Source of the DNA: Escherichia phage EC.P1
Sequence record: PQ657772.1
DNA: 64,000 nt
Reading direction: 5' to 3' (one strand)
Shown one piece after another: positions 53,338 through 63,994 of the stretch. The notes beneath the pieces are model-generated. The model did not search any database and was not told the DNA's origin. It saw nothing but the letters and a program-made list of their open reading frames with translations. Both the position numbers and the translations under genes were made by a program. How positions within the stretch are numbered: position 1 is the stretch's first letter; every line of letters begins with the position of its first letter.

Positions 53338-54186
53338 TTACATTGTTTCTTTTATGTTGCGTAACATAGTATTAACTATGTTCATCTTCCCGCCTAACTT
53401 GAAGTAATATTCCAATTTATTAATAATATTACTTTTTAATATCTCAAATATTTGATATTCATTTGTTTCGAAACCAAGTTCGAATTGGAAAGTATATAAA
53501 TTGTTGAATAGATGTACCAACGATGCATCAGGTGATTCCATTGTAAATGTGTAGTTGGTACGATAACCAGTACTAATCACCACTTCCGATGATTCACCTT
53601 TCATGAATATGTCAATATTATACATCATTGGGCGACCAGTTGCAATATCTTTCATTCGGAAGAATGCAGTACTACGATACACAACACCATCTTCGGTAAC
53701 CTTTTCTTGTATAGTGATATTTGAAACTTCACTCTCTTTGAATTTGGATTCGAATGAATGAATACGATTTGATTTTTCATCATCCGTATACATAGTGCAT
53801 GTATATTTTCCAAAATCATCTCTAGATGTATATGATTTATCGCTGGCGGTTTTATAAAACGAAACCCCATTGATGTGTTCTTCTTTGTACATCATTGTGT
53901 CATTGGATTTGTAGTATGAACAATTAGGTGTTGAAAGAGATTCAAAATTGTTCACATCATGACAGTAAGAAATAGAAGAATCGCTATACAGTACTACATC
54001 ACGAATTGCAACTTCTTTTGAAGTACCTTTTTTGACAGAAATTTGAAAGTCATTGCATGGGAAGATTCTATATCCATCGTATGTATCTGATGTACTGATA
54101 CCAAATGGTGTTGGGGAATTCAGAAATTCGTTGATATGTTCAAGTACTGAATACTTTTTGAAATTACGAAAATCTGTTGTATCCAT
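53338..54186 (-). CDS. hypothetical protein
   Basis: 282 aa ORF. Confidence 0.5.
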   Translation of the reverse strand: MDTTDFRNFKKYSVLEHINEFLNSPTPFGISTSDTYDGYRIFPCNDFQISVKKGTSKEVAIRDVVLYSDSSISYCHDVNNFESLSTPNCSYYKSNDTMMYKEEHINGVSFYKTASDKSYTSRDDFGKYTCTMYTDDEKSNRIHSFESKFKESEVSNITIQEKVTEDGVVYRSTAFFRMKDIATGRPMMYNIDIFMKGESSEVVISTGYRTNYTFTMESPDASLVHLFNNLYTFQFELGFETNEYQIFEILKSNIINKLEYYFKLGGKMNIVNTMLRNIKETM

Positions 54187-54210
54187 AGTAATACAATCTC
54201 CTAAATTTCG

Positions 54211-54241
54211 GACAAAAAATTAGTCGAGAATAAATCTCGAC
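54211..54241 (-). terminator. rho-independent terminator
   Basis: gtcgag-aataaat-ctcgac hairpin followed by U-run on minus RNA. Confidence 0.4.
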
Positions 54242-54351
54242 TTGTGTTTTACTTTACCATTCTTCATTGCTTTTTTACGGTCCACATGTGTTTGAGGTTT
54301 ATTAAACTCATTCATATGCTTTTGTACAAAGTTGTTTACATTTTTAGCCAT
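54220..54351 (-). CDS. possible small basic protein (43 aa)
   Basis: Hand translation MAKNVNNFVQKHMNEFNKPQTHVDRKKAMKNGKVKHKSRFILD; GGAG RBS; 3' end overlaps terminator hairpin; below track cut-off. Confidence 0.25.
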   Translation of the reverse strand: MAKNVNNFVQKHMNEFNKPQTHVDRKKAMKNGKVKHKSRFILD

Positions 54352-54353
54352 AC

Positions 54354-54827
54354 TTACTCCAAATCGGGATCTTTAACTGTTAGGCTTTCAATATCACTTG
54401 CGTAAAGAACTACATTAGTTTGTGTCTCTGATACTTTAAAATCATGATAACTATCTTTCACTTTAAAATTATCCAAAATAAACCCTTTACTACAACACAT
54501 CATGATTTTATCATCTTTGATAGTGTATGTATTCTTTTTCTTACGTACTTCAGATTGTGGGGTAATATTATCATTGTTACGAATAACACAATCAATGTAC
54601 TCGTCATTTGTACTCATAGGCATACCCATGATAAACGAATTACTAGTACTGATTGTTAGTATGAAAACATTAGTATTTGGATTGTGAAAGAAGTCGTGCA
54701 TAGTTTTACTGCATAAAAACAAGCACTGAATTATGTCCTTTACATTGAACATTATATCATGAACTTTGAATGCGTCCAACTCTAAAATGTCATCTATCTT
54801 TCCATTCTCAACAGTTTTAATCTCCAT
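54354..54827 (-). CDS. hypothetical protein
   Basis: 157 aa ORF. Confidence 0.45.
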   Translation of the reverse strand: MEIKTVENGKIDDILELDAFKVHDIMFNVKDIIQCLFLCSKTMHDFFHNPNTNVFILTISTSNSFIMGMPMSTNDEYIDCVIRNNDNITPQSEVRKKKNTYTIKDDKIMMCCSKGFILDNFKVKDSYHDFKVSETQTNVVLYASDIESLTVKDPDLE

Positions 54828-54869
54828 GATCTATCCTTGATCTTCAAAGGCACTCCATGTGCACATATA

Positions 54870-61510: not shown

Positions 61511-62073
61511 TATAAGTCCTCTAATTTAACAGGTACATGTTCATTGATGAACGTCTTAAGAGCCAGTACTAGATCTTCTAATTCTTCTGTACTGAATTTT
61601 AATATAGTTTTAAAGATTATCAATTCATTTCTTTCTATAATCTTTGGAATTTCATATGCTAACATAAGATTGCGAACAGTGCCAGTGTTGTGTATGAGGT
61701 TCGCATTGAATAAAAGTACATCGTACTCGTCTTTTTTAATTTTATAATTGTACTCTTCAATTACTTCATGTGTGTATGTATTCTTATAAGCAATTTTATT
61801 TTTATGAAATTTATAACCAACAGTAACACTATCATCATAAAATGTAGAACGATAATCTTGTTTTCTATCGCCGGACGAAATGATGTGTAATGCTGTGTAT
61901 TTGTCCTCAACATCTAACTCAATGTTTGCATAACTGTTAACGGTTTCATTCTTTAGGACGTTAATGTTATATTTCTCATTAACTTTAATGTACTGGCGTG
62001 AACCATTATCATCAATGAACTTAAAACAATGCTTTACCAACAATGTGATTTCTTTAATTAATTCAGTACTCAT
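61510..62073 (-). CDS. hypothetical protein (array member)
   Basis: 187 aa ORF. Confidence 0.45.
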   Translation of the reverse strand: MSTELIKEITLLVKHCFKFIDDNGSRQYIKVNEKYNINVLKNETVNSYANIELDVEDKYTALHIISSGDRKQDYRSTFYDDSVTVGYKFHKNKIAYKNTYTHEVIEEYNYKIKKDEYDVLLFNANLIHNTGTVRNLMLAYEIPKIIERNELIIFKTILKFSTEELEDLVLALKTFINEHVPVKLEDL

Positions 62074-62160
62074 ATCTTCTCCTGTACTCTGTTAAAAGCG
62101 ATTATAACACACCTGAATGCTCATGTAAAGCACTAAACACAAAAAGACCCATAAGGGTCT

Positions 62161-62745
62161 TTATTTTGGTAAAACGCTGTCAATGTACGCTAGAGCCTCA
62201 TCTCGGAGGTACGTTCCATCTATTGTTATGTAATAGTTCTTAGGGATATCACTACCAATCTTCTCGTAAATTTTCATACATGATATCACATCTTCATCAC
62301 AAATGGTACTCAATTGAAACTGTACTTCATCAGTTAAAGGTACGATATCATGTTTAGATGGGGGGTTGGTATTTTCATTCAAAACAATATCAAACAAATT
62401 AGGAGTATTCTTTGACGAAATGTAACGATGTTTACTACGAATTACCATTCTCGACAGAGAAATACTGGAACTCCATCTTGGGTCCACATCTTCGTATGTT
62501 AACGCAATTAACATTTCATAATAATCTTGGAATTTCATTGATGCATAATATGTTTTGTCCTCACCGTACATTCCAAATGATTTGAATTCAATGTCACCTA
62601 CATTGTGTGTATCACTATCACTATTCACGAATTTTAACAGACTGTTGATTAGTCTGATTAGAATATCATCTTTATTCATTATCAGATAACTCCCTGTGCA
62701 TGTTGTATAAATCTCTAAAGTCCTGATAGAAATCTTTTTCTTCAA
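62161..62745 (-). CDS. hypothetical protein, FQLST-motif multigene family
   Basis: 194 aa; TDEVQFQLSTICDEDV. Confidence 0.5.
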   Translation of the reverse strand: MKKKISIRTLEIYTTCTGSYLIMNKDDILIRLINSLLKFVNSDSDTHNVGDIEFKSFGMYGEDKTYYASMKFQDYYEMLIALTYEDVDPRWSSSISLSRMVIRSKHRYISSKNTPNLFDIVLNENTNPPSKHDIVPLTDEVQFQLSTICDEDVISCMKIYEKIGSDIPKNYYITIDGTYLRDEALAYIDSVLPK

Positions 62746-63238
62746 GAATATCTTTTAAACTAGGAATCTCATCCATAATCTCATCGATATCAGTTTCAAT
62801 AGTAAAACCTGATTTATAATTTTGTAAGAGATAACTAAAAGCAACAAGATAAAGAATTTCATTTGGTTTATGAATTAACATGTGTTGGAACATAACTGAT
62901 TCTAAATCAGATTCAGTACTAAGGTCAGCATAACATGTATCGTTGGTGTCAATTCGTACTGTACTTGAATTTGGATTCCATGTAAAGCAATGTGTTCCAA
63001 CTGTTCCCAAACATCCTACTCTTGTACTATCATTTGTTCCCAAAAAGATATAAAAATACGTTTCATCTGTATAATCGTATTTTTGTACTTTACCTTTTTT
63101 AAGGCATAAATCATTATCCTTTCGAAAAGTTTTAGATGATAGTGTATCAATGATGCACATTAATGTTTTTGCAAATGCAATACAATGACGTAATTCAAGT
63201 CTATGGAAATTATAATTAGTAAAATTCATAAAATTCAT
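62672..63238 (-). CDS. hypothetical protein (array member, divergent)
   Basis: 188 aa; ESVMFQHMLI. Confidence 0.45.
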   Translation of the reverse strand: MNFMNFTNYNFHRLELRHCIAFAKTLMCIIDTLSSKTFRKDNDLCLKKGKVQKYDYTDETYFYIFLGTNDSTRVGCLGTVGTHCFTWNPNSSTVRIDTNDTCYADLSTESDLESVMFQHMLIHKPNEILYLVAFSYLLQNYKSGFTIETDIDEIMDEIPSLKDILEEKDFYQDFRDLYNMHRELSDNE

Positions 63239-63780
63239 AATTGTACCTTCAATATTTTATCAGCAATTGATATAACCTTATCACTGAATACATTACCAAT
63301 CTCAATTCTTATATACATCGCAGGTGGAATCTTTCCCTGAAGTGCATAATATGTTTGTACACCTAAGTACTCATTATTTGATAATGAAAATTTGATTCTC
63401 TCCATATCTATGTCTGATTTTGGTAAATCTAAGAATTCATGATGGTAGTCAACATTTTCAGTGTATATCTGTTCGACGTAATTTGAATAGTCACTACTAA
63501 TGTAGATGCTATCATCACGAATAATTACTTTATAATCAGAAGGTTCAAACTTATCTTTAGGAGAAAAGAAGACATCATCTATCTTCTCTTCTCGGACACC
63601 GAATAACAATTTACCATCGTACTTTACATCAAGCATACTACCTAGAATAGTAATTACACAATGATCATCAATATTATGACGTAAAGAACGAGTCTTGTAT
63701 TTTGGGTTAATGAAAATTTTCATTAATTTTATACAAATGTCGGAAATGCATTTTACATTATCATTTTCTATGTACATCAA
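63235..63780 (-). CDS. hypothetical protein (array member)
   Basis: 181 aa ORF. Confidence 0.4.
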   Translation of the reverse strand: MMYIENDNVKCISDICIKLMKIFINPKYKTRSLRHNIDDHCVITILGSMLDVKYDGKLLFGVREEKIDDVFFSPKDKFEPSDYKVIIRDDSIYISSDYSNYVEQIYTENVDYHHEFLDLPKSDIDMERIKFSLSNNEYLGVQTYYALQGKIPPAMYIRIEIGNVFSDKVISIADKILKVQL

Positions 63781-63994
63781 AAACCCTCTTTAATTCTTTT
63801 ACATTTTTAATGAATACTTTCATTGCAGAGATCTCAAAAGATAATGATTTAAAATTGCAGTACTTTTTAAAGTACGACATAATGAATAGCATCTTGAGTT
63901 CTTTTTCTGTGTAAATTAAACTATTTTGAAAGTAACTTTCTTCTGATAAATCATCAAGAAACGGATATAAAACTCCATTTGTTCTCAAGAACAT
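63761..63994 (-). CDS. hypothetical protein
   Basis: 77 aa ORF at window edge. Confidence 0.35.
   Translation of the reverse strand: MFLRTNGVLYPFLDDLSEESYFQNSLIYTEKELKMLFIMSYFKKYCNFKSLSFEISAMKVFIKNVKELKRVFDVHRK

Follow-up and report, generated by a model that had tools for sequence, protein, structure and literature searches.

A large tandem family of proteins with a conserved Phe-Gln signature in Escherichia phage EC.P1 and related jumbo phages

Introduction

The MGF110, MGF360 and MGF505 multigene families of African swine fever virus (ASFV) and the ankyrin/PRANC families of poxviruses are located close to the genome termini, and their role in host range and immune evasion is documented. 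A different kind of divergent paralog is encountered in the internal proteins of phage T4 and the inner-body proteins of phiKZ, which are packaged and cut by the prohead protease, the signal being N-terminal or situated at S/A/G-x-E or L/I-x-E. Here, a tandem array of genes is described that occupies positions 53338-63994 of a 64,000-nucleotide stretch of DNA from Escherichia phage EC.P1 (sequence record PQ657772.1), the whole of which will be referred to as the window. The encoded proteins share the short signature E-E-x-x-F-Q-x-S, and will be called the FQ family. An earlier note, made from the sequence alone, had proposed that the array is a tandem multigene family; this proved to be the case, since profile hidden Markov models (HMMs) define its members and a complete related genome, TH47, carries 65 copies with clean controls. 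The family is real and apparently undescribed; that it is a single family, large, old and clade-specific, and that its proteins are not part of the virion, is regarded as established.

Tandem paralogs have been remarked upon in the same phage group before. Phage 121Q was reported to have a tandem array of '>30 very similar genes', with no coordinates given (Hua et al. 2017), and both this paper and one of 2013 (PMC3622015) concern genome expansion by tandem duplication in the same part of the genome, with no family definition, motif or coordinates. The literature on PBECO4, 121Q, phAPEC6, fEgEco12, UE-S1, RaK2, CBB and PA5oct offers generic remarks on paralogs only, and no description of the family.

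Members of the family in the window

Bases 53338-63994 of the window have a 99.3% match, over their full length, to Escherichia phage WPEC5. The same bases also have matches of 79-99% in 34 further Asteriusvirus-type jumbo phages, which infect E. coli or Salmonella; the figure is about 84% for the PBECO4/121Q group. The G+C content of the window is about 29-39%, and all but two of its 118 non-overlapping open reading frames (ORFs) of at least 50 amino acids (aa) lie on the minus strand (116/118).

The core motif FQ[LMI]ST is present in six window proteins (named by their first coordinate: 42254, 54870, 58299, 58862, 60361 and 62161), while residue shuffling (n=300) gives an expectation of 0.03 and never more than one occurrence in a single shuffle. 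The broader pattern [DE][DE]..FQ.[ST] occurs seven times, again against 0.03 expected, so that a chance motif is ruled out by the observed counts. A seventh protein, 57700, has the variant MQLST. The claim of at least six proteins with a shared motif is therefore upheld, and the ORFs named with it are all present at their coordinates on the minus strand, but the size of the family had been understated.

Pairwise comparison is too weak to define the family: the best blastp pair among the members in the window, 58299/58862, has an E-value of 1.1e-4 over 32 residues that include the motif. For this reason, profiles were used. An HMM was started from the six canonical proteins; its iteration over 166 ORFs, with E-values up to 1e-3 accepted, led to a total of 44 members and recruited window proteins 63761, 2826, 57126, 62672, 56185, 41568 and 59430. 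Outside the array, only three of about 95 window genes were taken. The four top non-seed matches in hhalign comparisons (57700, 60926, 59933 and 55357) all lie inside the array. On this profile evidence the window contains 13 firm members and about five probable ones, which are as follows (all on the minus strand; dN/dS is the ratio of nonsynonymous to synonymous substitution rates).

54870..55370, minus: member, 166 aa; motif AGELFQLSTV; HMM seed; phrog_38478 (unknown function)
56185..56703, minus: member, 172 aa; TEESLFQYSLI; HMM E-value 8e-4; dN/dS 0.22
57126..57710, minus: member, 194 aa; MEERLFQESCV; HMM E-value 9.8e-4, iteration 1; dN/dS 0.13
58299..58850, minus: member, 183 aa; SEEQHFQLSTL; seed; blastp E-value 1.1e-4 to the adjacent 58862 and 5e-4 to 41568
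58862..59443, minus: member, 193 aa; GEEQYFQLSTI; seed; modelled with AlphaFold2
59430..59936, minus: member, 168 aa; IEENEFQNNTL; HMM E-value 1.5e-5, iteration 4
60361..60939, minus: member, 192 aa; VDEELFQMSTV; seed; one of the two window members nearest the family consensus
62161..62679, minus: member, 172 aa; TDEVQFQLSTI; ATG at 62679; seed; modelled with AlphaFold2
62672..63238, minus: member, 188 aa; LESVMFQHMLI; HMM E-value 7.8e-5
63761..64000, minus: member cut by the window end; SEESYFQNSLI; HMM E-value 4.7e-6
41568..42257, minus: outlying member, 229 aa; SEEEHFQLMMM; HMM; blastp E-value 5e-4 to 58299
42254..42832, minus: outlying member, 192 aa; LPEHFQISTL; canonical motif, seed
2826..3227, minus: outlying member, 133 aa; NEEKFFQEDTI; HMM E-value 3.8e-4; TH47 ortholog E-value 9e-14
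57700..58338, minus: probable divergent member, 200-212 aa; EAALMQLSTS, with M for F
60926-61510 and 61510-62073, minus: probable divergent pair; AYIFQRSVL in the first, motif degenerate in the second
55357..55770, minus: possible divergent member, 137 aa; SIEFFQYEC; one of the top four non-seed matches by hhalign; weak
59933..60361, minus: possible divergent member, 142 aa; hhalign E-value 0.02, third-best non-seed match; weak

The two distant copies that had been noticed at 41568 and 42254 are thus joined by a third at 2826-3227. Among the proteins that had been set apart as divergent, 56185, 57126 and 62672 are confirmed by the iterated HMM, but 60926 is supported weakly only (hhalign E-value 0.0035); its comparison with 61510 gives a blastp E-value of 1e-3, and neither is significant individually. 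The strongest of the probable members is 57700, the top non-seed hhalign match (E-value 0.0013 over 118 columns). The longest ORF of 62161 extends to 62745, but its orthologs and the PHROG model begin at residue 23 of that ORF. The gene at 63761 is complete in WPEC5 (333,458-333,952), where it encodes 164 aa.

Extent of the array and number of copies

The end of the window cuts the array in the middle. In WPEC5 the array continues for about 19 kb, to position 353,421, and the main array of that phage comprises 43 profile-positive tandem genes on a single strand over about 29 kb. A whole-genome count was obtained in TH47, an unannotated genome that was assembled here and is 97% identical to the flagged region. 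A search of its 599 ORFs with the HMM gives 65 family matches at E-values up to 0.01, which take up 8.8% of its DNA. The main array, at 53-82 kb, accounts for 41 of the 65. Two more at about 40 kb are orthologs of window genes 41568 and 42254, and the remaining members are scattered at 117-181, 336 and 351 kb, with the motif at the expected place in nearly all of the scattered matches. Reversed and shuffled TH47 proteomes contain no HMM match with an E-value below 0.03, and these controls rule out profile drift as the source of the family size. By this count there are about 65 copies per Asteriusvirus genome, or approximately one gene in nine of these phages of about 350 kb.

The position of the array relative to the genome ends can be read in fEgEco12, whose termini were experimentally determined. 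The direct terminal repeat of this phage is 20,993 bp long. From the left end, the repeat is followed by a short array of tiny genes and then by the FQ array, which maps to about 27-57 kb from that end and reads away from it. Downstream neighbours of the array include genes for a polynucleotide kinase, an RNA ligase, a Dam methylase and a NinI-like phosphatase.

The signature motif

Across the 65 TH47 copies the overall signature is [STDN]-E-E-x-[LYF]-F-Q-x-S-[LT]-[VI]. Counting from the glutamine as position 0, Q is present in 64 of 65 copies, as is F at position -1, and these two are the only invariant columns in an unsupervised MAFFT alignment of 46 paralogs. Position +2 is S in 50 copies, and position -6 is S, T, D or N, also in 50. 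Glutamate occupies position -5 in 47 copies and position -4 in 46, the substitutes being A, S or G. Aspartate is found at -11 in 37 copies and at +6 in 29. Position -2 is L, Y or F, position +3 is L or T, and position +4 is V, I or L, while position +1 is variable (Y13, L12, E12, Q11, N4, K4). The motif had been placed about two-thirds along the protein, in good agreement with the median relative position of Q, which is 0.70 (interquartile range 0.66-0.75), about 49 residues before the C-terminus.

Codon usage at the conserved positions indicates the level at which the motif is maintained. The phenylalanine is encoded by TTT in 39 copies and TTC in 25, the glutamine by CAG in 36 and CAA in 28, and the conserved serine by both the AGY and the TCN codon families. 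Because synonymous codons vary freely at F, Q and S, the constraint is on the protein and not on a DNA or RNA element, and a nucleotide-level explanation for the motif is ruled out.

Homology beyond the motif

Identity between a reference member and the other family proteins is only about 10-21% in the 46-paralog alignment. This raises the question of whether they are related outside the motif at all, or whether convergence, or the exchange of a small cassette, has given the same motif to small early proteins that are unrelated. The flanks were therefore examined by masking 16 residues around FQ and scoring each TH47 member against a leave-one-out profile without those columns. Under these conditions, 12 of the 65 members score at E-values up to 0.01 and 26 at E-values up to 1. 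The median masked score is 3.4 bits for the family and 0.8 bits for 231 non-family proteins of similar length, and scores above 6 bits are reached by 37% of the family compared with 3.5% of the non-family proteins (Mann-Whitney p = 4e-7). The TH47 ortholog of 62672 reaches an E-value of 7e-4 even with the motif masked, and the best 'non-family' match of the masked profile, at 11.6 bits, is the TH47 ortholog of 57700, one of the probable members listed above.

The flanks are thus homologous in aggregate, and on these scores homology is demonstrable for about a third of members. The expectation that alignable sequence flanks the motif is borne out collectively and for that third, but not for many individual members, several of them in the window: for 54870, 57126, 58299 and 58862 the motif is nearly all that sequence comparison detects. 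The 39 members with masked E-values above 1, together with window blastp values of 1e-4 at best over 32 residues including the motif, are what an assembly of unrelated proteins would predict. Such an origin is nevertheless quite improbable. The masked scores are shifted relative to non-family proteins, and homology of the family is accepted because its members share their length, the position of the motif and its distance from the C-terminus, the tandem layout, in which a gene usually has its nearest relative next to it, and, in two models, a common predicted topology. In addition, the synonymous variation at the motif codons counters a recently copied DNA cassette.

Relation to known protein families

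The earlier note did not recognise the motif from any described family, and no consistent match has come to light. In Pfam, ten window members gave nothing better than an E-value of 0.02 and no family in common, and when the 46 paralogs were searched singly, none shared a Pfam family with another. NCBIfam gave no matches for family members, a profile search of PDB sequences found nothing, and among 15 members PADLOC produced only two unrelated single matches (E-values 0.0045 and 0.0093). In PHROGs, each of 20 window proteins (members and array neighbours) has its best match in a separate PHROG, all of unknown function; those of single window paralogs include phrog_34636, 29816, 38478, 38467, 35776, 37163 and 32531 (E-values 1e-74 to 1e-155). 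The sole link across paralogs is phrog_12674, which is matched by two members at an E-value of 0.003. PHROGs therefore hold one paralog per PHROG, and the superfamily relationship is not represented there. The Pfam and PDB results argue against close relatives among known anti-defence proteins such as Ocr, Acb, Tad and Gad, as far as can be judged from sequence.

It is conceivable that the acidic pair, the glutamine and the serine form a catalytic or ligand-binding site, for example that of a sponge, a small hydrolase or a protein that binds nucleotides or second messengers, with substrates that differ by paralog. The conserved polar residues (E, E, Q, S and D) do cluster in one short segment, and many copies could sequester or degrade diverse small molecules. 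An enzymatic role is improbable, however, since the glutamates are retained in only those 47 and 46 copies, with A, S or G in their place, and the invariant phenylalanine is not catalytic. Furthermore, there is no match to an enzyme family by sequence or fold, and 65 non-redundant enzymes of one tiny fold would be unusual.

Distribution in other phages

A HMMER scan of 1.84 billion representative proteins returned only 27 matches at E-values up to 1e-3, ten of which are just 28-51% identical to any WPEC5- or PBECO4-group paralog compared. Among these ten is a protein of Munch, 7t3, SE_PL and PHA46, which are jumbo phages of Salmonella. In Munch, nine or more genes within a 40-kb segment are profile-positive, and EEEYFQLSTV is an example of their motifs; there, family members are mixed with tRNA genes and two peptidyl-tRNA hydrolase genes and form no single unbroken array. 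A degenerate DNA pattern for EEEYFQxS led to three uncultivated IMG/VR contigs with dense arrays, one of them a contig of 360 kb, and 19 profile-positive genes lie within one 14.8-kb stretch. For one of the three contigs, Munch and fENko-Kae01 are distant relatives; for another, the phage collection contains no close relative. Arrays of the family are thus present in Munch-like Salmonella phages as well as in uncultivated viral contigs.

A word-indexed search of a 5.8-billion-protein database returned Asteriusvirus orthologs only, and its 46-paralog query missed even the out-of-window paralogs. In a Foldseek search of BFVD with the model of 58862, the ortholog is followed by proteins from RaK2, fHe-Yen9-03, GAP32 and pEa_SNUABM_47, all uncharacterised and 178-201 aa in length; the model of 62161 gives weaker matches in other large phages. 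No match was obtained by tblastn with a consensus fragment or with one protein query (P0063), so that membership of RaK2, GAP32 and CBB is not demonstrable at the sequence level and fold matches of low-confidence models are the sole evidence. Membership throughout the RaK2 group is likely on these model comparisons, and the family is specific to RaK2-like jumbo phages.

Evolution of the copies

The closest-matching paralog lies within two genes in 39% of cases, compared with 9.6% expected. Since the nearest paralog is usually nearby, the family has grown by local tandem duplication. For every window member, PBECO4 has a 1:1 ortholog that is syntenic, reciprocal-best and 67-98% identical, and dN/dS for the window paralogs is 0.13-0.38, excepting two near-identical pairs with too little divergence for a ratio; 54870, for example, has 67% identity and a dN/dS of 0.15. 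It follows from the 1:1 synteny and these ratios that the duplications are old and that each copy has been maintained. For comparison, nearby core genes have dN/dS values of 0.02-0.08 and other small hypothetical genes 0.1-0.35. The sequence comparisons thus place the duplications long before the WPEC5/PBECO4 split, under relaxed purifying selection like that of other accessory genes. When 38 ortholog pairs are pooled, dN/dS is lowest in the motif window, at 0.17, compared with 0.29 on its N-terminal side and 0.25 on its C-terminal side.

Expansions of this kind had been considered typical of rapidly evolving host-interaction or anti-defence proteins. Rapid evolution is not supported by the 1:1 syntenic PBECO4 orthologs and their dN/dS values, and the ortholog pairs give no sign of diversifying selection at WPEC5/PBECO4 depth.

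The repertoire is not identical in all strains. The gene at 42254-42832 is not in WPEC5, the closest relative, yet is present in PBECO4 at 97.9% identity. Its dS against PBECO4 is 0.009, whereas that of neighbouring genes is about 0.3-1, a pattern that points to the recent exchange, or insertion or deletion, of one paralog cassette. Coverage of the region in the Salmonella SD phages is just 66-88%. More generally, dS against PBECO4 ranges from gene to gene between 0.009 and about 2 (window 33000-64000), and this mosaic suggests frequent recombination between Asteriusvirus genomes.

Predicted structure and the role of the motif

Family proteins range from about 100 to 230 aa in size, with a median isoelectric point (pI) of 4.8 and a median net charge of -9, and just three of the 65 have a hydrophobic stretch; by these computed properties the proteins are soluble and acidic. 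AlphaFold2 (AF2) models were built for 58862 and 62161 on paralog-plus-ortholog alignments. Because these multiple sequence alignments are shallow (the database returned Asteriusvirus orthologs only), both models are of low confidence: the mean predicted local distance difference test score (pLDDT) is 60 and the predicted template modelling score (pTM) 0.51 for 58862, and 56 and 0.54 for 62161. The model of 58862 consists of an N-terminal helix, an eight-strand antiparallel meander and a short helix at residues 125-132 that corresponds to the motif, followed by a C-terminal part with helices at 140-156 and 177-192 and a short strand between them. The model of 62161 has the same topology. In both, the E-E-x-x-F-Q-x-S motif is a short helix and the most confident block. 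The run of S, T, D or N at position -6 followed by E-E-(E), as it appears in the logo of the 65 copies, would be a helix N-cap with an acidic first turn. MAM33/p32-like and PUR/Whirly-like folds were considered for the predicted topology (alpha, beta x7-8, alpha, alpha) in combination with the acidic pI.

The main alternative to a structural role is that the motif is a common recognition site, either for one partner (a host or phage protease, clamp or polymerase) or for one cutting protease, with the variable N-terminal domain picking targets or cargo. The logic would be comparable to that of the poxvirus ankyrin/PRANC adaptors. Its appeal lies in the retention of F and Q, each in 64 of 65 copies, while the flanks of about 40% of members have diverged beyond detection, and in the invariance of a polar residue. 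The motif window is also the most constrained part of the protein (0.17 vs 0.25-0.29), and the distance of about 49 residues from the C-terminus suits a modular layout with a variable N-terminal and a constant C-terminal part. Potyviral NIa sites (E-x-x-Y-x-Q|S/G) and the Q-L-[SD]-L-F beta-clamp-binding motif bear some likeness to the signature, though this is no more than a lead. Variation of the residue that follows Q means that the family retains neither the small P1' residue of 3C/NIa sites nor the hydrophobic second position of the clamp motif. An NIa/3C-type protease site is rejected on this count, the conserved serine being at +2 and not at +1. With respect to the clamp motif, Q-x-S-[LT]-[VI] fits positions 1, 3, 4 and 5, but position 2 is hydrophobic in a minority only and the segment is predicted to be helical. 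The motif is a helix in the most confident region of both models and not a linker, the capping pattern upstream is more simply explained by helix formation, and no candidate partner or dedicated protease was identified. Recognition by a common partner is therefore considered unlikely. Although it is tempting to extend the idea to about 65 target-binding domains coupled to a single hub, an adaptor library that redirects or destroys host proteins including those of defence, as in the poxvirus ankyrin/F-box or ASFV MGF proteins, this further step is more doubtful again.

Absence from the virion

The counterparts of the window array in phAPEC6 are gp400c-gp421c. The published virion proteome of this phage, determined by mass spectrometry (MS; its Table 1), contains 62 proteins, none of which is listed between gp347 and gp549. 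As gp400c-gp421c fall in the gap gp348-gp548, they are not packaged at detectable levels. A match to structural proteins, named earlier as a finding that would speak against the family, is thus contradicted by the absence of the array orthologs from the virion.

This bears on the possibility that the FQ proteins are packaged internal or inner-body proteins of the phiKZ/T4 type, that is, paralogous head proteins with a shared signal for protease processing or capsid targeting. Both 121Q and phAPEC6 have an inner body with unidentified components. In many copies, moreover, an upstream L-[ST]-E resembles the L/I-x-E site of T4-type prohead proteases. Packaging is nevertheless highly improbable: the 62 virion proteins include no product of an array gene, the motif has an internal position (0.70) and not an N-terminal one, and the array is terminus-proximal, far from the structural modules. 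The proteome gap contradicts virion or inner-body identity, and the conserved element does not have the N-terminal location of a targeting signal.

Expression signals

Of the sigma-70-like sites in the window array and the stretch that continues it, the 11 best all fall on the coding strand, several of them in the rare intergenic gaps, where they are paired with terminator-like hairpins. One such gap, of 87 bp, separates two array genes.

62162-62143, minus: terminator-like hairpin in the 87-bp gap
62129-62101, minus: sigma-70-like promoter with extended -10 (TTTACA-17-TG-TATAAT), in the same gap after the hairpin; found by consensus scan

Another gap, of 167 bp, follows gene 54354 (54187-54353). 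Besides a 43-aa ORF, for which WPEC5 has an annotation, it contains a terminator-like hairpin that is bidirectional (54222-54242), and the gap may be the promoter-distal end of an array transcription unit. In the related phage PA5oct, terminus-proximal uncharacterised genes belong to the early class and transcription depends on the host RNA polymerase.

Other genes in and around the array

One non-family gene inside the array (56703-57116, minus strand) encodes 137 aa (LYHAS ... YKNDYEP). Its ortholog in phage ph0011 is annotated as a 'putative ADP-ribosyl transferase', an annotation that could not be confirmed: the protein has no match in Pfam, NCBIfam or PDB, and its PHROG is of unknown function. 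Elsewhere in the window, two proteins of about 900 aa and one of 195 aa form another paralog set (4901-7630, 7647-8234 and 8247-10943, all minus strand) with a common C-terminal domain (E-values 6e-35 to 9e-16), and small clusters of related genes are also found at 3230-4830 and 46394-47797. The terminal-repeat region of WPEC5 (361-381 kb) is crowded with ORFs of 30-130 aa that have regular spacers of about 60-100 bp between them, a pattern which suggests that these small ORFs are individually transcribed genes.

Proposed function

The location of the array and its context make a role in host interaction or anti-defence a reasonable supposition. In the reading preferred here, the FQ proteins would have a fold composed of an N-terminal helix, an antiparallel beta-sheet that bears most of the sequence variation, and a helical C-terminal module. 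The signature would be the capped N-terminus and first turns of a helix that packs on the sheet. The proteins would be made in the infected cell, probably early, from promoters of the host RNA polymerase, and would not be packaged. Each paralog would bind a different host component and neutralise or redirect it, for take-over, for anti-defence or to set host range; specificity would come from the variable sheet, and the conserved helix would keep the scaffold together. The probability of this reading, in which the proteins are early and cytoplasmic and each has its own host component to bind through a variable sheet on a scaffold held by a conserved capped helix, is put at roughly 0.4, and it should be taken as tentative.

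Several observations weigh against it. Firstly, the near-absolute invariance of F and of a polar Q amid drift elsewhere fits poorly with a purely structural role; core residues at such divergence usually accept conservative substitution. Secondly, a helical wheel would put Q on the same face as the conserved E-4 and E-3, which would suit a functional surface. Thirdly, dN/dS below 0.4 and stable synteny are unlike the usual active defence arms race, at least between these two lineages. Fourthly, early expression is something that we infer from position, consensus promoters and the relative PA5oct, and the total number of promoter-like sites is no higher than in shuffles. Finally, homology outside the motif is not individually demonstrable for about 40% of members.

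Current resources list the family as dozens of unrelated 'hypothetical proteins', and its recognition turns these into one testable unit. Several phages of the clade are therapy candidates, and the profile and signature find arrays in uncultivated jumbo phages. A further question is why 65 diverged copies should each be under purifying selection with one Phe-Gln pair fixed. If the proteins are host-interaction or anti-defence factors, this repertoire would rank among the largest of its kind known from any phage; should the motif instead be a shared docking site, it would represent a new organising principle for phage take-over.

Comparison with known systems

The nearest published counterpart is the array of 121Q, and here a second tandem family has to be taken into account. 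Between the FQ array and the terminal-repeat region of WPEC5 (PV654397, 353.4-359.6 kb) there are about 26 adjacent genes that encode proteins of 65-94 aa with a mean identity of 34% and the motif 'L-GTNYQ-E'. The wording '>30 very similar genes' suits this array better than the FQ array, which has more than 40 adjacent genes that are very dissimilar and whose members are larger and more numerous than the GTNYQ genes. The GTNYQ array is probably the one that was meant in 121Q.

Like the T4 internal and phiKZ inner-body paralogs, the FQ proteins are divergent and are united chiefly by a short conserved peptide. They differ in that they are absent from the virion proteome and have their motif 70% along the chain.

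The ASFV MGF and poxvirus families provide an analogy. In each case there are dozens of divergent, non-structural paralogs in co-directional arrays near the genome ends, a short conserved element is set on a variable protein, and the presence of a copy can vary between strains, as with 42254 and its absence from WPEC5. The likeness would be one of organisation: there is no sequence or fold relation, the host is a bacterium with no ubiquitin system, and the role that is documented for the viral families is hypothesised only for the FQ family.

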